A DNA stretch of 64,000 bases from positions 272,355 to 336,354 of the forward strand of contig JAQTUX010000002.1 in the NCBI GenBank assembly GCA_028707125.1, read 5' to 3'. The notes beneath the pieces were generated by a model. That model was not told where the DNA came from and made no database searches. It saw only the letters and a list, made by a program, of their open reading frames with translations. The DNA comes from Candidatus Omnitrophota bacterium. GTDB lineage: Bacteria > Omnitrophota > Gorgyraeia > Gygaellales > JAQTUX01. The first letter of the stretch is position 1. Every line of letters begins with the position of its first letter. Of the stretch, positions 11,193-52,337 are shown in pieces. The translations under genes were made by a program, and so were the position numbers.

Positions 11193-11216
11193 TCCCTTCT
11201 CCTTTCAGTTCTTGAT

Positions 11217-11241
11217 AAATGATACCATAATAGTATCATTT
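11217..11241. promoter_or_regulatory. perfect inverted repeat AAATGATAC-N7-GTATCATTT, candidate Rrf2 operator
   Basis: Seen directly: 9-bp arms around a 7-bp spacer, about 25 bp upstream of the Rrf2 start codon. An AT-rich dyad of this geometry is what Rrf2 regulators typically bind. Confidence 0.5.
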
Positions 11242-11294
11242 GTCAAGAAAAAAATAATTTTATTTAACCGGCAACGCCTGTCTGGGATCACGCG

Positions 11295-13882: not shown

Positions 13883-14254
13883 TTATTGGGGCGAACCCGC
13901 CGCCCCGGCTTCCTTACGCGACCAATCCGACAGGAGGCCGTCTTTGTCAAAATAAACATAGATCTTCCCGGTATTGAAAAACTCCAGCGGATACCTGTAA
14001 AGCAGCCTCAGGCCGCCTTCATGCCGGCCCTCCAGGACCGGCTCGCCGTAAATATTTATGAACCTCTCCCGCGGCATGCCTCTTGCGATCTTTCCGTTTT
14101 TGATGTCGGAGGCAAGCAGATCAAACTTGGCTTCCTGCCTGCCGACCTGCCGTTGCATACTGCCCTGGCTTTCTCCCAGCGCCTTAAGCGTCATCAGCGG
14201 CCGGCCGCAGCCTGAGAGCATAATACAGAAACCAACATATAGAACTCTAATCAT
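13883..14254 (-). CDS. hypothetical lipoprotein
   Basis: Signal peptide with lipobox (…MLSGCGR…); no recognisable domain. Confidence 0.4.
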   Translation of the reverse strand: MIRVLYVGFCIMLSGCGRPLMTLKALGESQGSMQRQVGRQEAKFDLLASDIKNGKIARGMPRERFINIYGEPVLEGRHEGGLRLLYRYPLEFFNTGKIYVYFDKDGLLSDWSRKEAGAAGSPQ

Positions 14255-14397
14255 ATTGAATCTTAAACCCTAAACTCTAAATCCTAAACCCTAAATAAAC
14301 CCAAAACCCAAAATTCCAAACCCAAAACGCTATTGCTTTGTAATTGCGTGTTTTGAGTTTTGTGTTTTGACATTTGAGTTTGTTTAGAGTTTAGTGT
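14255..14397. repeat. long imperfect palindrome of 7-bp units: (AAAYCCT/CCCAAAA)n arm facing a (TTTRGGG-like)n arm
   Basis: The left arm (aaaccctaaactctaaatcctaaaccctaaataaacccaaaacccaaaattccaaacccaaaacgc) reads as CCCTAAA-type heptads. The right arm (gcgtgttttgagttttgtgttttgacatttgagtttgtttagagtttagtgtttagggtttagtgtttt) is its imperfect complement with TTTAGGG-type heptads. It lies between the pgi stop and the lipoprotein start. Confidence 0.8.
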
Positions 14398-15690
14398 TTA
14401 GGGTTTAGTGTTTTCCCTACCCAGCAACTCAAACATATTCTTTTTATATGCCTCAACACCCGGCTGATTAAACGGGTTGACACCCTGTATATACGCCGAT
14501 ATCGCTACCGCCTTTTCAAAAAAGAAAAACAGCGAGCCCAAAGAATACGCGCTTCTGTCGGCAATCTTGATTGACATATTAGGCACGCCGCCGTCCATAT
14601 GGGCCTTCCTGGTGCCCACGCGCGCCTGGTTATTGATAAAACTGAAGCCCTTGCCTTTTATATAGTCCAACCCGTCGATGTTTTTGTCCATGGCGGGGAC
14701 TTTAATTTCCCTCTTGGGCTTTTCTACGGCCATAAAGGTCTCAAACAGGTTCCTCGCGCCCTCCTGTATCATCTGGCCTATAGAATGCAGGTCCGTGGTC
14801 AAAACACACGACGCCGGGAATATGCCTTTGCCCTGTTTGCCTTCGCTCTCGGCGAAAAGCTGCCTCCACCACTCCGCGAGATAATACAGGCAGGGATTGA
14901 AACCGGAAAGTATCTCTATATTTTTTCCCTTACGATAAAGCAGCTGCCTTGCCGCGGCGTACCTGTAGGAAATGTTTTTCTCAAGGTCAAGCGCGGAACA
15001 AAGATCTTTCATATCAGAGCCGCCCCTAAGCAGTTCCCTTATGTCTATCCCCGAGGCGGCCTGCGGCAATAAACCTACGGGGGTGAGCACGGAAAACCTG
15101 CCTTCAACGTCCTGGGGTATGAAAAATTTCCGAAAGCCCTCTGAATCGGCTATCTTCTTCAGCGTCCCCTTTTGCCTGTCCGTTGTGCAGATGATCCTTT
15201 TCTTGAGCTGCCGGCTGGAATACCTCTTCTTCATATAGTTATATATCACCCTGAACGCGGCTGCCGGCTCAAGCGTCGCGCCTGATTTGGAGATCACATT
15301 TACGCAAACATCCCTGCCCTTTAGCCCGTCCAACACATCCTGAAGGTAATCAGCGTCAAGGTTAATGCCGGCAAACACGACCTTAAGCCCCTCAGGGCGG
15401 CAAAATTCCAAAGCAGCCCGCGAACCTAAGTAAGACCCGCCGATCCCTATGACTACCAATACCTCGCTTGTCTCCCGAATCTCTCCGGCGCAATTCTCAA
15501 TATCTCTGATCAGCTCATCAGGCGTATCATCCGGCAGATCAAGCCAGCCCAGGGAAGCCCCGCCTTCCCCGGTTCTGTCGATAAGAAGCTCATGCGCCCG
15601 TTTTACTTCACTGAAAATAGAAGCAAAATCTCTGCCGGATATAAAAGGCGATAAATTACCACAATCTAGCTCTATCCTGGTCTTCGGCAT
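14398..15690 (-). CDS. pgi: glucose-6-phosphate isomerase (short bacterial form)
   Basis: 430 aa with conserved PGI motifs (…GIGGSYLG…, …VISKSGATLE…). Confidence 0.85.
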   Translation of the reverse strand: MPKTRIELDCGNLSPFISGRDFASIFSEVKRAHELLIDRTGEGGASLGWLDLPDDTPDELIRDIENCAGEIRETSEVLVVIGIGGSYLGSRAALEFCRPEGLKVVFAGINLDADYLQDVLDGLKGRDVCVNVISKSGATLEPAAAFRVIYNYMKKRYSSRQLKKRIICTTDRQKGTLKKIADSEGFRKFFIPQDVEGRFSVLTPVGLLPQAASGIDIRELLRGGSDMKDLCSALDLEKNISYRYAAARQLLYRKGKNIEILSGFNPCLYYLAEWWRQLFAESEGKQGKGIFPASCVLTTDLHSIGQMIQEGARNLFETFMAVEKPKREIKVPAMDKNIDGLDYIKGKGFSFINNQARVGTRKAHMDGGVPNMSIKIADRSAYSLGSLFFFFEKAVAISAYIQGVNPFNQPGVEAYKKNMFELLGRENTKP

Positions 15691-16005: not shown

Positions 16006-17034
16006 CTAAAACAAACCTTCGACCCTGGTATTGCAGGACGGACACAAGCCGCCCTTAAGGTTATTCCGGGAAACGCTGAAACCCTGCCTTTTTATAAGAA
16101 CGGTATTACAATTACCGCAGAATGTGTCTTCCCTGCCTCCGGGCACATTCCCGGTATACACATACTTAAGCCCGGCCGCCTTCCCTAAACCATACGCCAT
16201 CTCTAACGTCTCAACGGGAGTGGCCTCCACATCATTCATTTTGTAATCCGGATGAAACCTTGATATGTGCCAGGGGATCTCCCTGCCGACGGAAGCGATG
16301 AACGCGGCGGCCTCTCCCAGCTCTTCCTTTGAATCGTTAAGGCCGGGGATGACCAGCGTTGTCACCTCGACCCAGATGCCGATCTCCTTCATATGCCGTA
16401 TTGATTCGCATACCGGCTTAAGGCGCGCCTTGCAGACCTTGCGGTAAAACTCGTCGGAAAACGCCTTCAGGTCAACGTTGGCGGCGTCAAAATAACCTTT
16501 TGAAAGATCAAGCGCCTCCCGGGTCATATAGCCGTTTGTCACAAGGATATTAAGCAGCCCCTCTTTTCCGGCAAGCCCCGCGGTCTCATAGGCGTATTCA
16601 AAGAAAATCGTGGGCTCGGTATAGGTATAGGAGATGCTGGCCGCGCCGCCCGCCTTTGCCTGCTTCACTACCTCACGCGGCGGCATTCTCTGCGCCTTGT
16701 CATCCCCGCCTTCACTGTACCCTGTCTGTGAGATCTGCCAGTTCTGGCAAAAACCGCACCTGAAATTACAGCCGTATGCGGCTATGGAAAAGGATTTAGA
16801 ACCCGGAAGCACATGAAAGAGCGGCTTTTTTTCTATAGGGTCAAAATTCGCGGCCGCTACATCAGCGTAAGCGTAAGTATAAAGCCGGCCTTTTTTGTTC
16901 TGCCTGACGCCGCAGAAACCAAACTCACCGTCTTTTATCAAACAACGATGGGAACACAGAAAACAGGAAACGTCATTGCCGGAAACCTGCCTGTAAAGCA
17001 GCGCCTCACTGCGCATTTGAAAACAGGGACACAT
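16006..17034 (-). CDS. amrS: AmmeMemoRadiSam-system radical SAM enzyme (PflA-like activase family)
   Basis: 342 aa. CNFRCGFCQN is a radical SAM CxxxCxxC motif, and an N-terminal Cys cluster (CFLCSHRC…FCG) is present. Overall similarity to the AmrS family is recognised from knowledge. Confidence 0.75.
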   Translation of the reverse strand: MCPCFQMRSEALLYRQVSGNDVSCFLCSHRCLIKDGEFGFCGVRQNKKGRLYTYAYADVAAANFDPIEKKPLFHVLPGSKSFSIAAYGCNFRCGFCQNWQISQTGYSEGGDDKAQRMPPREVVKQAKAGGAASISYTYTEPTIFFEYAYETAGLAGKEGLLNILVTNGYMTREALDLSKGYFDAANVDLKAFSDEFYRKVCKARLKPVCESIRHMKEIGIWVEVTTLVIPGLNDSKEELGEAAAFIASVGREIPWHISRFHPDYKMNDVEATPVETLEMAYGLGKAAGLKYVYTGNVPGGREDTFCGNCNTVLIKRQGFSVSRNNLKGGLCPSCNTRVEGLF

Positions 17035-17077
17035 CCCATCTTTTAGCCGGAAACGAACAGGATGTGTCCCTTTTTTT
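17026..17077 (-). promoter_or_regulatory. 11-bp perfect GC-rich hairpin (GGGACACATCC / GGATGTGTCCC) that pairs the amrS start codon, followed by a T-run
   Basis: Seen directly. The arm at 17026-17036 contains the complement of ATG-TGT-CCC (amrS codons 1-3). The pairing arm is at 17060-17070 and TTTTTTT follows on the plus strand (17071-17077). The 23-nt loop carries a weak SD. Confidence 0.6.
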
Positions 17078-26104: not shown

Positions 26105-27775
26105 TTAAGCCATGCCTCCTATCATGCGATTAATTGCCTCGCCCGCGGGCACCATAGGAAAGACATTCTCCTCCTCTTCTATCTGAAAATCCATGAACAC
26201 AACATTGTCTATTGAGAGCGCCTTCTCAATCGCCGGGCGCACCTCTTCCTTTTTCGTAACGCGTATGCCGGCCGCTCCGTAGCTCTCTGCCAACTTCACA
26301 AAGTCAGGGCCGGTAATACAGGTCTGGGAGTAACGCCTGTTATAAAACAGCTCCTGCCACTGCCTCACCATGCCTAGATAATGATTATTTAGTATCGCCA
26401 CCTTGACCGGGATCTTATTGCAGACGCAGGTCGCCAACTCCTGGATGTTCATCTGGATAGAGCCGTCCCCGGCGATATCAAACACTATTTTGTCCGGACA
26501 ACCCATCTTCGCGCCCATCGCCGCGGGAAAGCCAAAACCCATAGTGCCCAGGCCGCCGCTGGAAATGAAGGTGCGCGGTTTTTCGTATTTATACCACTGC
26601 GCCGCCCACATCTGATTCTGCCCCACCTCAGTCGTTATTATCGCCTCGCCCCTGGTCGCCTCATAGATCTGTTCTATGACGTACTGCGGCTTTATCTTTC
26701 CGGAACTGCCGTACTTGAGAGGAAGGTCCTTCCGCCATTTTTCCACCTGTTTTAACCAGGCGGCTGTATCCGGAGCTTTCTTTATAAGAGGCAGCAGACC
26801 AGCCAGTATCGTCTTCGCGTCGCCAACTATAGGTATATCCACGTTCACATTCTTGCTTATGGAAGCCGGGTCTATATCAATATGTATTATCTTCGCGTAA
26901 GGCGCGAAAACGTCAAGCCGGCCCGTCACCCTGTCGTCAAACCTCGCGCCGACGGCGATGATCAGGTCCGACTCCATTATAGCGTGGTTGGCGAAAGCCG
27001 TCCCGTGCATACCGAGCATGCCTAAAAATAATTTATGGCCTCCGGGAAAGCCGCCCATGCCCATCAATGTGGTTGTGACCGGTATGTTTGTCTTCTCCGC
27101 CAGCGCCTTCAGCTCTTTATCCGCTCCGGAAATGATCACGCCTCCTCCGGCGTAAAGAATGGGTTTCCTGCTCGCCTCTATTGCCTTTGCCGCCTTTTTT
27201 ATCTGTCCGTGATGCCCCTCATAAGTAGGGCTGTAGCCCCTCATCTTGACCTCTTCCGGCCAGACAAAATCTGTTTCCCCCAACTGCACGTCAACCGGCA
27301 AGTCGATCACAACCGGCCCGGGCCTGCCGGTAGATGCAACATAAAACGCCTCCCTTATTATCGTGCTCAATTCACCGGCGTCCTTCACCAGATAATTATG
27401 CTTTGTTATCGGGCGGGTAATGCCGGTAATATCGGCCTCTTGAAAGGCGTCGCTGCCGATAAGGTTGGTCTTGACCTGCCCTGTTATGGCGATAATGGGA
27501 ATGGAATCCATAAAGGCCGTGGCAATGCCTGTTATCAAGTTGGTTGCCCCCGGCCCGGACGTGGCAAGGCAGACCCCCACCTTACCCGTTGCGCGGGCGT
27601 AACCGTCCGCGGCGTGCGCCGCTGCCTGCTCGTGGCGCGTAAGGATGAATTTTATATCGGCGTCATACAGCTTGTCAAAAATAGGCAGCACAACGCCGCC
27701 GGGATAACCAAACATCACCCGCACGCCTTCTTTTTTAAGGCACTCGATTAAGACCTGCGCTCCCGTCATCTTCAT
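26105..27775 (-). CDS. ilvB: acetolactate synthase large (catalytic, TPP-dependent) subunit
   Basis: 556 aa with the TPP motif …[12 protein letters not shown]…NN… and biosynthetic AHAS-type sequence. Confidence 0.9.
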
Positions 27776-27778
27776 AGT

Positions 27779-29431
27779 TTACCCCAATATCGCGCCTTTG
27801 TCCGCGGAACTCACCAGCCTGGAATACCTGGCAAGGTAACCGGTCTTAATTTTAGGCGCGACAGCTTTCCAGCCCTTAAACCTCTGTTTTATTTCAGAGG
27901 CGGTGAGCTTCGCCTCTAATTTCCTGCCAGGTATATCTATAATTATCGTATCTCCGTCCTTCAAGACCGCGATGGCGCCGCCATTGGCCGCCTCGGGAGA
28001 CACATGGCCGATGCAAGGCCCCTTTGTGCCGCCGGAGAATCTTCCGTCGGTGATCAATGCCACTGAATCCTCAAGCCCCAGCCCCACAATGGCTGCCGTC
28101 GGCGCGAGCATCTCACGCATGCCCGGCCCGCCGGCGGGCCCCTCATAACGGATGACCAGGCAGTCCCCCGGCCTTATCTTCCCGCCGAGGATCGCCCGCA
28201 TCGCCTCCTCCTCGCGGTCAAACACCTTTGCCTTGCCCGTGAATTTCATCATCTTCGCGGAAACGCCGCTCTGTTTTACTACCGCGCCGTCGGGAGCGAT
28301 ATTGCCGCGCAGGACCGCGATACCTCCCTGTTTATGATAGGCGCGGCCAAAAGGCCTGATCACCTCTTCATCGTAAATCCGCGCCGCGTCCGCGATCTCA
28401 AATATGCTCTGTCCGCTTACGGTAGCGGCATTATTCAGTTTTTCCTTCAGGCGCTTAAGCACCGCTGGTATGCCTCCGGCATACTCTAAGTCCTCCATGA
28501 AGTGTTCGCCTGCCGGTTCAAGACTCGTGATATGAGGCGTAATTTTGCCGATTTTATCAAAAATCCTTAAGTCCAACTCTATTTTGGCTTCATTGGCGAT
28601 AGCCATTAAATGCAGGACGGTATTGCTTGAACCCCCCAGGGCCATATCCGCGATAATGGCATTTTCCATGGACTTCTCTGTGATGATCTTAAGAGGAGTA
28701 ATATTTTCCCTCACCAATTCCACTATGCGCTCTCCGCTTGCTTCAGCAAGGCGGCGTTTCTTAGCAGAGGCGGCCAAAGCGCAAGCCGCGCCTGGCAAAG
28801 ACATCCCCATTGCCTCAGTAAGGCAGGCCATGGTATTCGCCGTATATAAGCCCTGGCAGGAGCCGGCGCCCGGACAGGCCTCCATTTCCAGACAGGAAAG
28901 CTCGTCCATTGAAATTGAGCCCTTTTTAGCCCGCGCCACCCCTTCAAAGGTATCGTGCACAAAGGCAAGCCGCCTCCTGCCGATACGCCCGCCGAGCATC
29001 GGGCCGGCGGTCAAGATTATCGCCGGAATGTTCAGGCGCGCCACGCCCATAAGCATACCCGGGGTGATCTTGTCGCAATTAGTAAGGCAGACGATCCCGT
29101 CTAATTGATGGGCGTTACAGACCGTCTCAATGGTATCGGCAACCAGCTCTCTTAAGGCCAATGGATAGCACATGCCTAAATGCCCCATTGCCAGCCCGTC
29201 GCAGATCCCCGGCACGCCGAAGAAAAACGGCACGCCGCCGCCGTAACATATGCCGCGCTCAATAAAACGCTCCAGATCCCTCATGCCTATGTGGCCGGGT
29301 ATCAGATCGGTGAACGATGTCGCCACGCCGATGAACGGGCGCGACATGGACCTTTTGCTCAACCCTGTCGCGTATAACAGGGCTCGGTGCGGAACGCGCT
29401 CTATGCCTTTCTTGATCGCGTCGCTTCTCAT
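27779..29431 (-). CDS. ilvD: dihydroxy-acid dehydratase
   Basis: 550 aa with IlvD/EDD-family motifs (…CDKITPG…, Fe-S ligating Cys, …SGGTKG…). Confidence 0.9.
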
Positions 29432-31735: not shown

Positions 31736-31740
31736 ATGCT

Positions 31741-31836
31741 TTAGCGAAAAGTGTAAAGCGCAAAGCGTAAAACCAAAACTTAAAGTTTAAAGTTTTACAC
31801 TTTAGTTTTGCGCTTTTCGCTTTACGTTTTACGCTT
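31741..31836. repeat. heptad-phased imperfect palindrome (GCGNAAA)n…(TTTNCGC)n, copy A
   Basis: Seen directly: agcgaaaagtgtaaagcgcaaagcgtaaaaccaaaacttaaagtttaaagttttacactttagttttgcgcttttcgctttacgttttacgctt. Shares a 42-nt core (1 mismatch) and a 23-nt block with the element at 50221-50345. Lies between the pfkA start and the ahcY stop. Confidence 0.85.
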
Positions 31837-33102
31837 CTAAGTTCCTTCTTCCCAACTGGAAAGATACTTCTCCTGCTTTGGCGTCAATCTATCCACCCTT
31901 ATCCCCAGGGATTTCAATTTCAAAGCGGCGATGTCTTTGTCTATTTCTTGAGGCACCGAATACACCTTCTTCTCAAGAAAGCTGTAATTCTTACTTATAT
32001 ATTCCGCTGAAAGCGCCTGGTTCGCGAACGACATATCCATGACCGAAGCGGGATGGCCTTCTGCGGCGGCGAGGTTGATCAGGCGGCCTTCTCCTAAAAG
32101 ATATACCCTCTTTCCCGCGGCAAGCGTGTATTCATCCACGAATTCCCTGATCCTGCGTTTCTTCCTTGCCATCTTTTCCAGGTCGGATATGTCTATCTCC
32201 ACGTTAAAATGGCCTGAATTGCATACTATGGCGCCATCCTTCATCTTTTGAAAATGTTCCTTTCTTATTACGCTTATATCGCCCGTGGTGGTCACGAATA
32301 TATCGCCTATGGCGGCGGCCTGCGCGACAGGCATGACCATATTGCCGTCCATTACCGCCTCAAGCGCCCTTAAGGGGTCTGTCTCCACGACTATTACGTT
32401 AGACCCCATCCCCTTAGCCCTCATGGCTACGCCCCTGCCGCAGAAACCGTAACCGCAGACAACAAAGCTCAGGCCGCAGAGGAGCTTGTTGGTCGCGCGC
32501 AATATGCCGTCTATTGTGGACTGGCCGGTGCCGTAACGGTTGTCAAAAAGATGCTTTGTATCCGCGTCATTGACGGCTATGATCGGGTATTGCAGCGCCG
32601 CGTCCTTCTCCATCGCCTTAAGCCGTATTACTCCGGTCGTGGTCTCCTCTGTCCCCCCCAATATCCCCTCAAACGCGCCTCTCTTGTGAATGGTGGAAAC
32701 CAGGTCCGCTCCGTCATCCATGGTTATGTTCGGATTTATGGAAAGCGCCGCGTCAATATGCTTATAATAGGTCTTTGTGTCTTCGCCTTTGATGGCAAAG
32801 ACAGGGATGCGGAAATCCTTCACTAAAGACGCTGCCACGTCATCCTGAGTGGACAGCGGGTTTGAGGCGCAGATCGTAACGTCTGCCCCGCCAATTTTTA
32901 GCGCGTTAGCCAACACGCCGGTCTCAGTCGTAACGTGAAGACAGGCGGCGAGTTTTATGCCCTTAAGCGGCCTCTCTTTTTTAAACCTTTCTTCTATCAG
33001 CCCCAGAACAGGCATATTATTCTTTGCCCATTCTATCCTTAATTTACCCTTTGCCGCTAATCCTAAGCTCTTGACATCATACTTCACTTTAATCCTCCTC
33101 AT
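31837..33102 (-). CDS. ahcY: adenosylhomocysteinase
   Basis: 421 aa with a NAD Rossmann (…[11 protein letters not shown]…) and conserved SAHH motifs. Confidence 0.9.
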
Positions 33103-38858: not shown

Positions 38859-38983
38859 AGTAAAGCAGAACTAAGAATTAAGAGCTAAGAACTAAGATGA
38901 CATCTATGAACCCATCCAAAACAAACAACAAAAAAATTCCCTTTTGCCCCTTAATTTTTTCTTAGTTCTTAATTCTGCCTTTA

Positions 38984-41992: not shown

Positions 41993-42055
41993 GATTTTTC
42001 CCTGAATTTTGCCATTAAGCGGGGATTATCCTCCTTCGCTCATCAAATTGCTAAC

Positions 42056-42099
42056 GATGGTAGAGCTTCGGAGGATTAATCCGCCGAAGCCCTACCATC
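42056..42099. promoter_or_regulatory. 44-bp perfect palindrome GATGGTAGAGCTTCGGAGGATTAATCCGCCGAAGCCCTACCATC
   Basis: Seen directly. The centre is GGATTAATCC, and related GGATTATCC motifs lie at 42023-42031 and 42125-42133, the last overlapping the msbA-like stop. It sits between the msbA-like 3' end and the rpsB promoter and is not followed by a U-run on the transcribed strand. Confidence 0.6.
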
Positions 42100-42127
42100 A
42101 TTTACCCATTGATGTGGCGTAGGCGGA

Positions 42128-49542: not shown

Positions 49543-50226
49543 TCAATATCTTCCCTTGCAGGCCTTCACACACACCCCGCAGATATACTGGCCGACCAGG
49601 CCGCTGTTTTGAAACTCCTTCAGTTTTTCAAAACAAGCGGTGTGATCAAAATCTTCCCGTCTTTGCTTTATGGCCCCTCGGGGGCAGGCCTGTATGCAGG
49701 CGCGGCAGTCCCCGCAGCCATCCGCGGCCGGGCTGTCCGACTTAAGCGGCATATCGGTAAGAATGGTAACGATCCTGAACCGGCTGCCCAACTGCCTGTT
49801 TACCAGAAGGTTATTCCTGCCGATCCAGCCCAGGCCCGCGAGGTAACCGATCTTTTTATGAGAAAGATGCGCGCTCTGTTTTACCCAATCCAGGATCTGA
49901 GAAGCGGGTATGGGTAACGCGGAAAAACCCCTGCCGGATATCAAACCTGACAGCCTCAATGCAATCTGGTCAAGCATCATATTGACAGCGCGGTAATGAT
50001 GAAAATAAAGTTTGGTGGGGTGGTCTTCTATTTCATCCAGTATCGGCCCTGACAGCGCGGCCCCCAGGCACACAGCCCTGTCTAATTTCTCTAAGACAGC
50101 GGCGGCGATAGTAAATTCATTCTTTACCCCGGATATATCCGCCACGCCGAACAGCCGCGCCCCAAGCTCCATCGCCTTCTCTTTGAGCAGATTGTAATTA
50201 TTCGTAGTATCCATATCACTCAACAA
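49543..50226 (-). CDS. QueG-like (DUF1730 plus 4Fe-4S dicluster) protein, short form
   Basis: 227 aa; …GLGWIGRNNLLVN…GSRFRIVTILTD… resembles the epoxyqueuosine reductase core, followed by CGDCRACIQACP and CGVCVKAC. It is shorter than canonical QueG (about 380 aa). Confidence 0.45.
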   Translation of the reverse strand: MLSDMDTTNNYNLLKEKAMELGARLFGVADISGVKNEFTIAAAVLEKLDRAVCLGAALSGPILDEIEDHPTKLYFHHYRAVNMMLDQIALRLSGLISGRGFSALPIPASQILDWVKQSAHLSHKKIGYLAGLGWIGRNNLLVNRQLGSRFRIVTILTDMPLKSDSPAADGCGDCRACIQACPRGAIKQRREDFDHTACFEKLKEFQNSGLVGQYICGVCVKACKGRY

Positions 50227-50345
50227 ACGTAGAGCGTAGAGCGCAAAGCGTAAAACTAAAACTTAAAGTTTAAAGTTTTTTGTTCTGTAGTTTTAAGCTT
50301 TACACTTTAGTTTTGCGCTTTTCGTTTTACGCTTTTCGCTATCTT
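50221..50345. repeat. heptad-phased imperfect palindrome (GCGNAAA)n…(TTTNCGC)n, copy B; right arm overlaps the mnmG 3' coding end
   Basis: acgtagagcgtagagcgcaaagcgtaaaactaaaacttaaagtttaaagtttt…acactttagttttgcgcttttcgttttacgcttttcgc. Shares a near-identical core with copy A. The segment 50293-50334 encodes the Lys-rich MnmG tail KRKTKSAKLKCKA. Confidence 0.85.
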
Positions 50346-52209
50346 TCAAACCAATCTTCTTAATCCACACCATCAACACCGCGACCGCCGCGGGCGTGAC
50401 CCCGGGTATACGCAGCGCCTGCCCCAGAGACAGCGGCCTTACCCTGCCCAATTTATCCCTGATCTCGCGTGAAAGGCCGTTGAGCCCGTTATAATCCATG
50501 CCCGCCGGGACCTTTATCTTTTCCAGGTGGCGGAAGCGTTCAACCTCCGCCTTTTGCCTCTCGATGAACCCGGAGTATTTCATTTCCGTTTCAATTAAAA
50601 ATGCCGCCCTTTCATCGAGGCGCAAGCCCCGGCAATCCAGCTCCCGTAATCTGCGCAGGTCTATCTGCGGGCGCTTCAGCAATTCCGCGAGCGTAACCTC
50701 TTTTCTCAAGGCCGGGCTGCCGAATGAGTTAAGCTTTGAGTTAACCTCCCGCGTCGGCTTTATCCTGCTTGACATTAGCGCCTCTGTGCCTTCCTTTACC
50801 GCCTTTATTTTATCCCGGGTCTCTCTGTATTCCTCCCTGCTTACAAGGCCGAGCCCAAACCCCATCTCTCTTAACCTTATATCGGCGTTGTCCTCTCTCA
50901 ACAGGAGCCGGTATTCTACCCGCGAGGTAAACATGCGGTAGGGCTCATCAGTGCCTTTTGTGGTAAGGTCGTCTATTAAAACGCCTATGTAGGCCCGCGA
51001 CCTTTCCAATACAAAAGGGCCTTTGCCCTTTACCGTTAAGGCGGCGTTTATCCCGGCGATCAGGCCCTGGGCAGCCGCCTCTTCGTAACCGGTCGTCCCG
51101 TTTATCTGGCCGGCGAGATAGAGATTTTTTACGCGCTTTGTCTCTAAACTTGGCAGATTTTCCCTGGGGTCCACGACGTCGTGTTCTATGCCGTATCCGA
51201 AATCTATGATCCCGGCATGTTCCAGCCCTTCTATGGAATGGACCATTTCAACCTGCGCCTCTTCAGGTAAACTTGTGGATATGCCGTTAGGGTAGATCCG
51301 GTTATCCTCTCTGCCTTCCGGCTCAAGGAAAACCTGGTGCCTCACCCTGTCGGGGAATTTCACTACTTTATCTTCAATGGACGGGCAATAACGCACACCC
51401 GTTGCCTTTATCAGGCCTGTATAAAGAGGCGAATACTTCAGGTTGTCGCGGATGATCTTGTGCGTGCGTTCGTTTGTATATGTTATATAACAAGGCGCCT
51501 GTTTTAATTTAAGCCCCTTATTGGTAAAAGAGAACGGCCTGGGGTCGGCATCGCCTTCCTGGATCTTGAGACGGGAAAAATCTATCGTCGCCTTATCAAG
51601 CCGGGCGCAGGTGCCTGTTTTAAAACGCATGATCCCAAACCCCAGGGACCTCAATGACTCGGATAATCCCATGGCCGCCTCTTCATCCTGCCTGCCTCCG
51701 GGAAAATTCCTCAAGCCTATATGGATCTTGCCTCCGGAGAATGTTCCGGGCGCGATAACAACCGTTTTTGAGAATATCTCTTCATCTTTAGTCCTGACGC
51801 CGTTTACGCTGCTGCCTTTGACCAGCAGGGATATGACCTCCGCCTGTTTAAGGCAGATGTTGCTTTGTTTTCCCAGGGCCTTTCTCATATATTCTTTATA
51901 CCGAAAGCGGTCTATCTGGGCCCGGCTTGACCAGACAGCAGGCCCCTTTGACGCGTTTAAGATCCTGAACTGCAGTCCGCAGGCATCTGCCGCCTTTGCC
52001 ATCTCCCCGCCCAGGGCGTCTATCTCCTTTACCAGCTGGCCCTTGCCTACACCGCCGATCGCGGGATTGCAGGACATATGGCCGATCTGCTCCAATCTCA
52101 AGGTAACCAGCAGGGTATTACAACCCATCCTTGATGCAGCTAATGCAGATTCAATACCTGCGTGCCCGGCGCCGATGACTATGACATCATACATATTATT
52201 TGTCGTCAA
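50293..52209 (-). CDS. mnmG: tRNA uridine-5-carboxymethylaminomethyl(34) synthesis enzyme MnmG (GidA)
   Basis: …YDVIVIGAGHAG… FAD motif and a conserved MnmG body. The ORF-track start is TTG at 52209; a canonical ATG (MYDVIVIG) lies at 52194. Confidence 0.85.
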   Translation of the reverse strand: MTTNNMYDVIVIGAGHAGIESALAASRMGCNTLLVTLRLEQIGHMSCNPAIGGVGKGQLVKEIDALGGEMAKAADACGLQFRILNASKGPAVWSSRAQIDRFRYKEYMRKALGKQSNICLKQAEVISLLVKGSSVNGVRTKDEEIFSKTVVIAPGTFSGGKIHIGLRNFPGGRQDEEAAMGLSESLRSLGFGIMRFKTGTCARLDKATIDFSRLKIQEGDADPRPFSFTNKGLKLKQAPCYITYTNERTHKIIRDNLKYSPLYTGLIKATGVRYCPSIEDKVVKFPDRVRHQVFLEPEGREDNRIYPNGISTSLPEEAQVEMVHSIEGLEHAGIIDFGYGIEHDVVDPRENLPSLETKRVKNLYLAGQINGTTGYEEAAAQGLIAGINAALTVKGKGPFVLERSRAYIGVLIDDLTTKGTDEPYRMFTSRVEYRLLLREDNADIRLREMGFGLGLVSREEYRETRDKIKAVKEGTEALMSSRIKPTREVNSKLNSFGSPALRKEVTLAELLKRPQIDLRRLRELDCRGLRLDERAAFLIETEMKYSGFIERQKAEVERFRHLEKIKVPAGMDYNGLNGLSREIRDKLGRVRPLSLGQALRIPGVTPAAVAVLMVWIKKIGLKDSEKRKTKSAKLKCKA

Positions 52210-52337
52210 TTACCAATTAGCCAATTCCCAAATCCCAATAAATGACCAATTAGTCAATTCCCAATTGGACCTTGGGTAATTGAGCATTTATTTGGCATTG
52301 GTAATTGGTCATTGGAAATTTATTCGGATTTATTATA
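52206..52337. repeat. heptad-phased imperfect palindrome (CCAATTN)n…(NAATTGG)n
   Basis: caattaccaattagccaattcccaaatcccaataaatgaccaattagtcaattcccaattgg / ccttgggtaattgagcatttatttggcattggtaattggtcattggaaatt. Fills the whole mnmG-apgM intergenic space. Confidence 0.8.

Follow-up and report, generated by a model that had tools for sequence, protein, structure and literature searches.

The window, that is, the whole 64-kb stretch of DNA that was analysed, carries nearly all of its genes on the minus strand and comes from a genome with a G+C content of about 51%, and it harbours two elements with 33% G+C, copies A and B. Copy A spans the spacer between ahcY and pfk, reaching from the ahcY stop codon (31837-31839) to a point 7 nt short of the pfk ATG (31735) and leaving no Shine-Dalgarno sequence between itself and that ATG. 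Copy B starts within the 3' end of mnmG, and its other end lies 13 nt from the ATG of a Fer4_16 gene. The first-pass annotation had placed the two copies downstream of two unrelated genes, ahcY and mnmG. The flanking genes were assigned via Pfam: both copies adjoin unrelated housekeeping genes, with B overlapping the mnmG 3' end. The features are as follows.

31743-31835, no strand assigned: copy A, a 93-nt imperfect palindrome (inverted repeat I2, fold, nhmmer).
31743-31784, plus strand: A-rich 5' arm of A, made of the heptamers AGCGAAA AGTGTAA AGCGCAA AGCGTAA AACCAAA ACTTAAA (inverted repeat, lag-7 signal).
31794-31835, plus strand: T-rich 3' arm of A, the complement of the 5' arm, with most heptamers mismatched at the fifth base (inverted repeat, fold).
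50228-50340, no strand assigned: copy B, a 113-nt imperfect palindrome between mnmG and a Fer4_16 gene (inverted repeats I1, I5 and I7, fold, nhmmer).
50280-50301, plus strand: 22 nt of B that are absent from A, comprising the loop and the 3' side of the apical stem.
50293-50340, minus strand: last 15 codons (SEKRKTKSAKLKCKA) and stop codon of the mnmG ORF, encoded by the A-rich arm of B.

The Pfam C-terminal domain of the MnmG encoded in the window ends at residue 613 of 638, and most of the orthologous C-termini that we inspected lie 0-10 residues past an LMVYLKK motif (median length 621 aa among 120 matches), so that the Lys-rich MnmG tail encoded by B is an add-on.

A and B are each a single long imperfect palindrome whose arms, the 5' one rich in A and the 3' one rich in T, consist of degenerate heptamers (AAAGCGN ... 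AAAACTN). The element is thus a palindrome built of heptamers, which corrects the first-pass description of it as two shared blocks of a repeat. Read along A, the six heptamers of the 5' arm are followed by GTTTAAA and then by the complement, while the arms of B (50228-50274 and 50292-50338) are joined by an apical stem longer than that of A. Each strand of A and of B folds into one hairpin (z-scores against shuffles of -2.4 to -6.5), with energies of -36.4 and -36.8 kcal/mol for the two strands of A (z about -4.7) and of -48.2 (plus strand) and -33.5 kcal/mol (minus strand) for B. Profile searches with nhmmer recovered the arms on both strands, at 31737-31791 (plus) and 31840-31788 (minus) in A and at 50224-50274 (plus) and 50343-50293 (minus) in B. 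The seven-nucleotide period is distinctive: lag 7 was the sole lag among 3-12 with at least 25 matches per 35-nt frame in the 64-kb window, the arms reaching 25-27 of 35 and the other lags at most 22 anywhere. At a lower cut-off the lag-7 signal marked only five intergenic hairpins, namely A, B and those at 14251-14420, 38860-38980 and 52203-52320, the last three with units quite unlike those of A and B. All five lie at borders of functionally unrelated genes (metK-ahcY/pfk, apgM/mnmG/Fer4, pgi/hypothetical, and between tRNAs).

The likeness between the two copies resides in a 40-nt block (31757-31796 and 50240-50279) and in an exact 23-mer (31797-31819 in A, 50302-50324 in B), between which B carries its additional 22 nt. 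The 23-mer had been reported correctly, and so had the single C/T mismatch of the larger block, the length of which had been given as 42 nt. MAFFT and a repeat finder concordantly gave about 90% identity over two 52-nt blocks. The local alignment score of A with B was 117, compared to 24.8 ± 4.9 (maximum 53) for dinucleotide-shuffled B and to 62 ± 12 when the order of the heptamers in B was permuted (0 of 1000 permutations reached 117). The likeness therefore exceeds both what A/T-rich low-complexity sequence would give, the objection raised in the first-pass annotation, and what a common 7-mer vocabulary would give. Along the same lines, a degenerate 23-mer derived from the arms matched only the four arms of A and B within the 64-kb window, with 0 matches expected. 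The 22 nt had been taken as an insertion in B; since A has the shortest apex in an alignment of 16 family members (all 14 other members possess more apex than A), the difference is probably an apex deletion in A rather than an insertion in B.

We then scanned GTDB contigs, one genome per species, with this degenerate 23-mer (AAAGCGYAAAACYAAARYKTAAA), which matches all four arms. The scan returned 81 loci versus about one expected by chance, and about 75 of the 81 matches are the 5' arm of a hairpin like A or B. About half of the loci belong to Omnitrophota MAGs and the rest to Atribacterota, Patescibacteria and Planctomycetota, along with a small number of bins under the label Gammaproteobacteria and one bin each from other groups. 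Outside the searched columns an AAA-R-Y-K-N grammar continues over three more units, after which conservation is lost, marking the boundary of the element. Sixteen members (104-128 nt) align end to end in one layout, in which an arm has about seven units and the consensus is position-specific. A full member measures about 105-125 bp and comprises an A-rich arm in which about seven degenerate heptamers follow one another (consensus AGCGTAA AGCGTAA AGCGCAA AGCGCAA AACTAAA ACTTAAA GTTTAAA), a short apex and a complementary T-rich arm, so that the whole element is an inverted repeat with the termini AGCG...CGCT. The 81 loci contained 273 period-7 regions, compared to 12-46 for lags 5, 6, 8, 9 and 10. 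Some Omnitrophota elements from other genomes (for example L041, L065, L045 and L037, in our numbering of the fetched loci) match A or B as well as A matches B. Members from different phyla are barely more alike than the baseline set by the search 23-mer, which we read as a common heptamer grammar and not as proven homology; judged by these alignments, monophyly of the family may not extend across phyla. There are also heptamer hairpins with the opposite polarity (L065:4522 and L079:1395), as well as hairpins with purine-rich or T-rich 5' arms. The 7-nt architecture is general, and the A-rich-5' polarity is specific to the A/B family. The arm pattern had 0 matches in 2.9 million viral contigs and hence gave no sign of a phage vehicle.

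Small mobile palindromes of other kinds are nested in the loops of several family members (L005:4744-5053, L026:2946-3251, L018, L050, L070 and L080). They include the types GTCATTGCGAGG...CCTCGCAATGAC, GTCATTCCCGCGnnAGCGGGAATCC and paired CCCGC..GCGGGAyCCCGC..GCGGG, the first of which also occurs in the ahcY-pfk spacer of another lineage (L085:1476-1590, listed with the nested palindromes). The tips of hairpins seem to be preferred landing sites for other palindromes.

The closest syntenic relative of the window is the 59-kb JGI contig Ga0366835_1002359, with an AhcY 87% and an MnmG 75% identical to those of the window. Its ahcY-pfk spacer measures 62 nt and contains a strong AGAGGAGAG ribosome-binding site and no hairpin, and its mnmG-Fer4 spacer measures 38 nt, likewise without a hairpin, a GAG-rich motif before the ATG being conserved with the window. 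These short, hairpin-free spacers indicate that A and B are lineage-specific insertions. No family member was found in 43 kb of syntenic DNA of this contig. A third lineage (AhcY 85% identical) carries the unrelated palindrome GTCATTGCGAGG...CCTCGCAATGAC in its ahcY-pfk spacer, and a metagenome scan with MnmG yielded one distant locus (57% identity). Other genomes contain near-identical pairs of elements at unrelated loci (L037/L048 and L050/L070), in which the likeness is confined to the hairpin, from outermost heptamer to outermost heptamer: the copied unit is exactly the hairpin. The median pair score was 77 within genomes versus 55 between genomes (63 between Omnitrophota genomes), and the A-B score ranks among the highest 1% of between-genome Omnitrophota pairs. 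Omnitrophota loci contained about 3 extra copies per 100 kb as counted, or about 2 without detached 3' arms, and the density in the window (2 copies per 64 kb), from which the copy number of the source genome is extrapolated, is close to this rate. A 1.8-kb Logan contig of the source organism ends 30 nt past the ahcY stop codon, inside A, as expected of a repeat or a hairpin. On sequence grounds, A and B are therefore real copies of a dispersed repeat.

The mode of dispersal is a separate matter. The first-pass annotation had inferred spread by duplication or transposition and had proposed a search for target-site duplications. No direct repeat of at least 3 nt was found within 3 nt of the ends of the A or B hairpins, no duplication was visible at the near-identical pairs L037/L048 and L050/L070, and neither A, B nor these pairs displayed a conserved target motif. 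Copy dispersal is thus upheld by the empty sites and the multi-copy family, whereas classical transposition, lacking target-site duplications, is not. We also considered an enriched neighbouring gene, for example a transposase, and rejected it: when 527 ORFs of the 81 loci were compared all against all with BLASTP, no recurrent transposase-like family emerged, the clusters being syntenic orthologues, only few of them annotated. Insertion is into intergenic spacers, where a copy typically adjoins the stop codon of the upstream gene and the start region of the downstream one and in some cases runs into them. The two arms of a copy then decay independently, and apex or heptamer-sized pieces are lost or gained. 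Taking these observations together, we consider it probable that A and B are copies of a non-coding, non-autonomous, dispersed palindromic repeat of REP/MITE-like character, which we named the heptamer-zipper palindrome.

The other three heptamer hairpins of the window have units of their own. That at 14251-14420 is a 170-nt hairpin (TAAACCC TAAACTC TAAATCC ... / GGGTTTA; fold -53 kcal/mol, z about -10) between pgi, the stop codon of which lies inside it, and a 123-aa ORF; its unit is the 7-mer of the plant-type telomere repeat, and no relatives of it were found among the fetched loci. The CTAAGAA/TTCTTAG hairpin at 38860-38980 lies between tRNA-Leu and tRNA-Gly, while in the syntenic relative a hairpin of another unit type lies instead between tRNA-Lys and tRNA-Leu (L084:3862-3997), a junction that is tight in the window. 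The CCAATTN/NAATTGG hairpin at 52203-52320 spans the apgM-mnmG spacer and has a conserved AGTAATATAATA (TATAAT-like) box upstream of it, and the relative carries a diverged TTGGTTA-type heptamer hairpin at the same junction (L083:9905-9995), the sole case of positional conservation that we saw. Further heptamer hairpins of the relative lie between ilvD and ilvB (L084:15382-15500), a junction that in the window is a 3-nt gap (27775-27779) without a hairpin, and between frr and tRNA-Lys (L084:3599-3694); two hairpins of the relative have TTGGTTA-type sequence in common. At one orthologous gene junction, three Omnitrophota genomes each bear a palindrome of a different kind (AGCG-type half element, G/C-rich palindrome or CGTATTG-type heptamer hairpin; L053:5660-5740, L001:3950-4050 and L079:1997-2060). 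Other spacers of the window contain two ordinary-looking hairpins (17020-17076 and 11209-11249), one with a GC-containing stem followed by a T run (terminator-like) and the other a near-perfect 20-nt palindrome followed by an A/T run, so that the source genome also possesses conventional stem-loops, and a palindrome with 40-nt arms and no 7-nt period (42041-42114) in the 222-nt spacer upstream of rpsB.

The alternative that survives best is that the element is a cis-acting RNA hairpin under selection, serving as a (bidirectional) terminator or 3'-end stabiliser, as an RNase III-type processing site, or as a translation coupler or insulator that brings stop and start codons to the foot of the stem. 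Such a role would suit the position of all five window hairpins between functionally unrelated genes, the placement of A between the ahcY stop and a pfk ATG devoid of a Shine-Dalgarno sequence, and the family median of about 13 nt between the stop codon upstream and the foot of the hairpin. It would also suit the junction that is occupied by different palindromes in different lineages and the conserved position of the apgM-mnmG hairpin in the window and the relative. The pairing data, however, speak against it. Since the heptamer arms can pair in several registers, RNAalifold returned only a partial, register-shifted fold of the family, and the symmetric structure was therefore imposed and the pairs counted. 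In this register 81.7% of the cells of the family alignment were paired, versus 23-54% with one arm slid, yet exchanging the 3' arms among members gave 85.1%, above the real value, and the covariation score (0.128) lay under every shuffle (mean 0.183). No compensatory pairing changes were detected among the family arms, pairing with the own arm being no better than pairing with the arms of other members. The arms vary independently, and the fifth base of the heptamer is mismatched in most members, making the stem a series of 6-bp blocks parted by 1x1 mismatches.

Strand and junction data do not favour an RNA role either. Fold stability did not favour the sense over the antisense strand (33 versus 27, p = 0.16). 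Members lie at 44 co-directional, 3 divergent and 1 convergent junctions, compared to a same-loci background of 86/7/7%, with no enrichment of convergent and no depletion of divergent junctions. A consensus terminator scan found no terminator-like site at A or B, the T runs of which lie inside the 3' arm and not after it, so that neither has a short GC stem followed by a U tract, and in Rfam only tRNAs scored above the gathering threshold, permissive matches being generic miRNA-precursor hairpins. Moreover, the relative lives without A and B and has an ordinary ribosome-binding site in place of A. We had also entertained a "serial terminator", in which each CGC+UUUU unit acts as a small terminator and thereby explains the A-5'/T-3' polarity, and dropped it as a general rule in view of the opposite-polarity hairpins and the unbiased junctions. 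Collectively, the null results for duplication, covariation, strand and junction point to selfish or neutral REP/MITE-like DNA rather than to a selected RNA, and we regard the RNA explanation as unlikely for the family. We keep it in consideration on account of the positional conservation at apgM-mnmG and the recurrence of different palindromes, as some hairpin could be useful at apgM-mnmG and at the recurrently occupied junctions.

A second alternative, which we hold to be very improbable, is that each palindrome grew in place by 7-nt slippage and palindrome-templated copying, with the likeness between copies arising from a heptamer vocabulary favoured by mutation or composition. A passage of PMC4692102 (citing Mrazek et al. 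2007) describes heptamer repeats as over-represented in bacterial genomes and links them to polymerase slippage, which would accord with such growth, as would the recurrence of the AAARYKN grammar in several phyla with little likeness beyond it, the presence in these genomes of heptamer hairpins with unrelated units, and the tolerance of the arms for register shifts of one unit. Growth in place is nonetheless hard to reconcile with a heptamer order common to A and B along their whole length, which no permutation reproduced, or with a position-specific consensus in 16 members of equal arm length. The near-identical copies at unrelated loci in other genomes and the empty sites of the relative, where no intermediate short arrays are found, argue against it in the same manner.

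Some members are read in frame. About 9 of 93 are open throughout the hairpin, always in one frame of the element, and form the N-terminus of a downstream exported protein (..K.KVKVQSLKF.VLSFSFALCAL..YAQE), the A-rich arm encoding a Lys-rich n-region and the T-rich arm a hydrophobic core (..VLSFSFALCAL..), behind which a cleavage-type motif such as YAQE usually stands. Among the proteins are SurA, an ApbE lipoprotein, a glycoside hydrolase, a 180-aa protein and, in two genomes, a metallophosphoesterase; in the ApbE lipoprotein a lipobox (LVGC) directly follows the hairpin at the usual spacing to the MGTF motif. The members with in-frame leaders lie at these positions.

L079:415-560, L036:1889-3686 and L071:7000-7998, no strand given: in-frame leader members.
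L001:5480-5650, L018:5698-6717, L059:3-791 and L016:4099-5877, minus strand: in-frame leader members.

That the family is mainly a coding module, a signal-peptide or membrane-anchor cassette (Lys-rich, then hydrophobic) that has left dead or misplaced copies between genes, A and B among them, would fit these leaders and the L053 orthologue, which has a normal signal peptide and no hairpin, but is the least probable explanation of all, as about 90% of members, including A and B, contain stops and lie outside genes or clip gene ends, the element reads alike on both strands, and a profile of the hairpin-encoded leaders found only 2 significant proteins among 5.8 billion.

We therefore retain the dispersed palindromic repeat as the preferred explanation. 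Under it, A and B would be selfish or neutral DNA that spreads via a single-stranded or cruciform hairpin intermediate, which might be handled by an enzyme acting in trans or by template switching, and any effects on the host would be side effects. A transcribed element would place a long hairpin in a polycistronic mRNA, and a translated one would yield a Lys-rich peptide from the A-rich arm and a hydrophobic peptide from the T-rich arm, which could explain both why MnmG ends in a Lys-rich tail in the window and why members elsewhere form signal peptides. We tentatively put forward a bolder version, though we would sooner expect it to fail than to hold: heptamer-zipper palindromes may be a distinct and widespread class of mobile DNA of Omnitrophota and other mostly uncultivated phyla, the fixed polarity of which (A-rich 5' arm and T-rich 3' arm, alike on both strands) makes each copy a latent export signal, a Lys-rich n-region with a hydrophobic h-region, that has repeatedly created or replaced signal peptides at gene starts and added Lys-rich tails at gene ends. 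If so, selfish palindromes would be a source of protein-targeting sequences, a route suggested by the in-frame leaders of SurA, ApbE and the other proteins, and the idea that selfish DNA supplies such sequences is directly testable.

What is known of Omnitrophota, Atribacterota and Patescibacteria comes almost entirely from metagenome bins, and to our knowledge descriptions of their non-coding DNA are scarce. A repeat family so large breaks assemblies, as with the Logan contig that ends inside A, and misleads gene callers, as at the mnmG tail and the N-terminal extensions, and it could also serve as a strain marker.

Our literature searches surfaced no description of such elements in Omnitrophota, only papers on heptamer simple sequence repeats (SSRs). 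Among known systems, the repetitive extragenic palindromes (REP/REPIN) of Enterobacteria and Pseudomonas, mobilised by RAYT transposases (PMC3116915), resemble the heptamer element in several respects. Both are extragenic, imperfect palindromes with many copies per genome between co-directional genes, in both the hairpin itself is the copied unit and families are genome-specific, and neither has terminal repeats beyond the palindrome or a target-site duplication. REPs, however, measure 20-40 nt, begin with a conserved 5' GTAG and usually form inverted doublets, whereas the heptamer element is a single palindrome of 95-125 nt made of about 14 degenerate heptamers; and REPs have a RAYT partner, whereas none is known for the heptamer element, the source genome being represented by the 64-kb window only. 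GTAG is absent in or beside A on both strands, and the GTAGs of B are A-to-G variants of TAAAGCG units. With palindromes of 93 and 113 nt and no GTAG in A, the copies are too long for REPs and are not REPs.

Correia/NEMIS, ERIC, RUP and BOX elements carry terminal inverted repeats that match an IS and usually a short target duplication (e.g. TA). The heptamer element is like them in its length of about 100-150 bp, its single long hairpin, and its non-coding, dispersed nature and co-transcription with adjacent genes; unlike bacterial MITEs, it has no duplication of at least 3 nt, and its internal 7-nt period is alien to those families. Integron attC sites are imperfect palindromes that follow a cassette ORF and have the core motifs RYYYAAC ... 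GTTRRRY at their ends; both motifs are absent in A, the one match to each in B lies outside the palindrome, and the neighbours are housekeeping genes and not cassettes, on which grounds we rejected this identity. Rickettsia palindromic elements (RPEs), reportedly described by Ogata et al. in 2000, are palindromic mobile DNA lying in frame within protein-coding genes, to which they add peptide segments. The genes that RPEs enter belong to an obligate intracellular alpha-proteobacterium, and RPEs are not known to have a heptamer structure. The heptamer element resembles them in its in-frame palindromic copies and differs in that these lie at N-termini (signal peptides) or C-termini (the Lys-rich MnmG tail).

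Heptamer SSRs, finally, include TAACTGA of Beggiatoaceae (PMC4679880) and GGGAATC/GGGGAYT of Xanthomonas and Nostoc (PMC4692102). The heptamer element has in common with these and with the cyanobacterial STRRs a unit of 7 nt, placement between genes, several types of unit in one genome and a patchy distribution across phyla, and as in an STRR the arms of A and B contain tandem head-to-tail 7-nt repetition; SSRs, too, are occasionally inverted and potentially form stem-loops. They are mainly direct tandem arrays of one near-perfect unit in variable copy number, however, whereas the heptamer element has degenerate ordered units (AAARYKN) in a fixed number of about seven per arm, its two arms are inverted in every case, and the palindrome disperses whole, as a single unit. 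The degenerate, fixed-order units of the 16 aligned members led us to reject an array of a single near-perfect unit. The element is thus set apart from REPs by length and GTAG, from MITEs by target duplication, from SSRs by the one near-perfect unit, and from terminators by the GC stem and U tract, and it connects two phenomena that have been treated separately, the unexplained heptamer excess of bacterial genomes and the REP/MITE-like palindromes.
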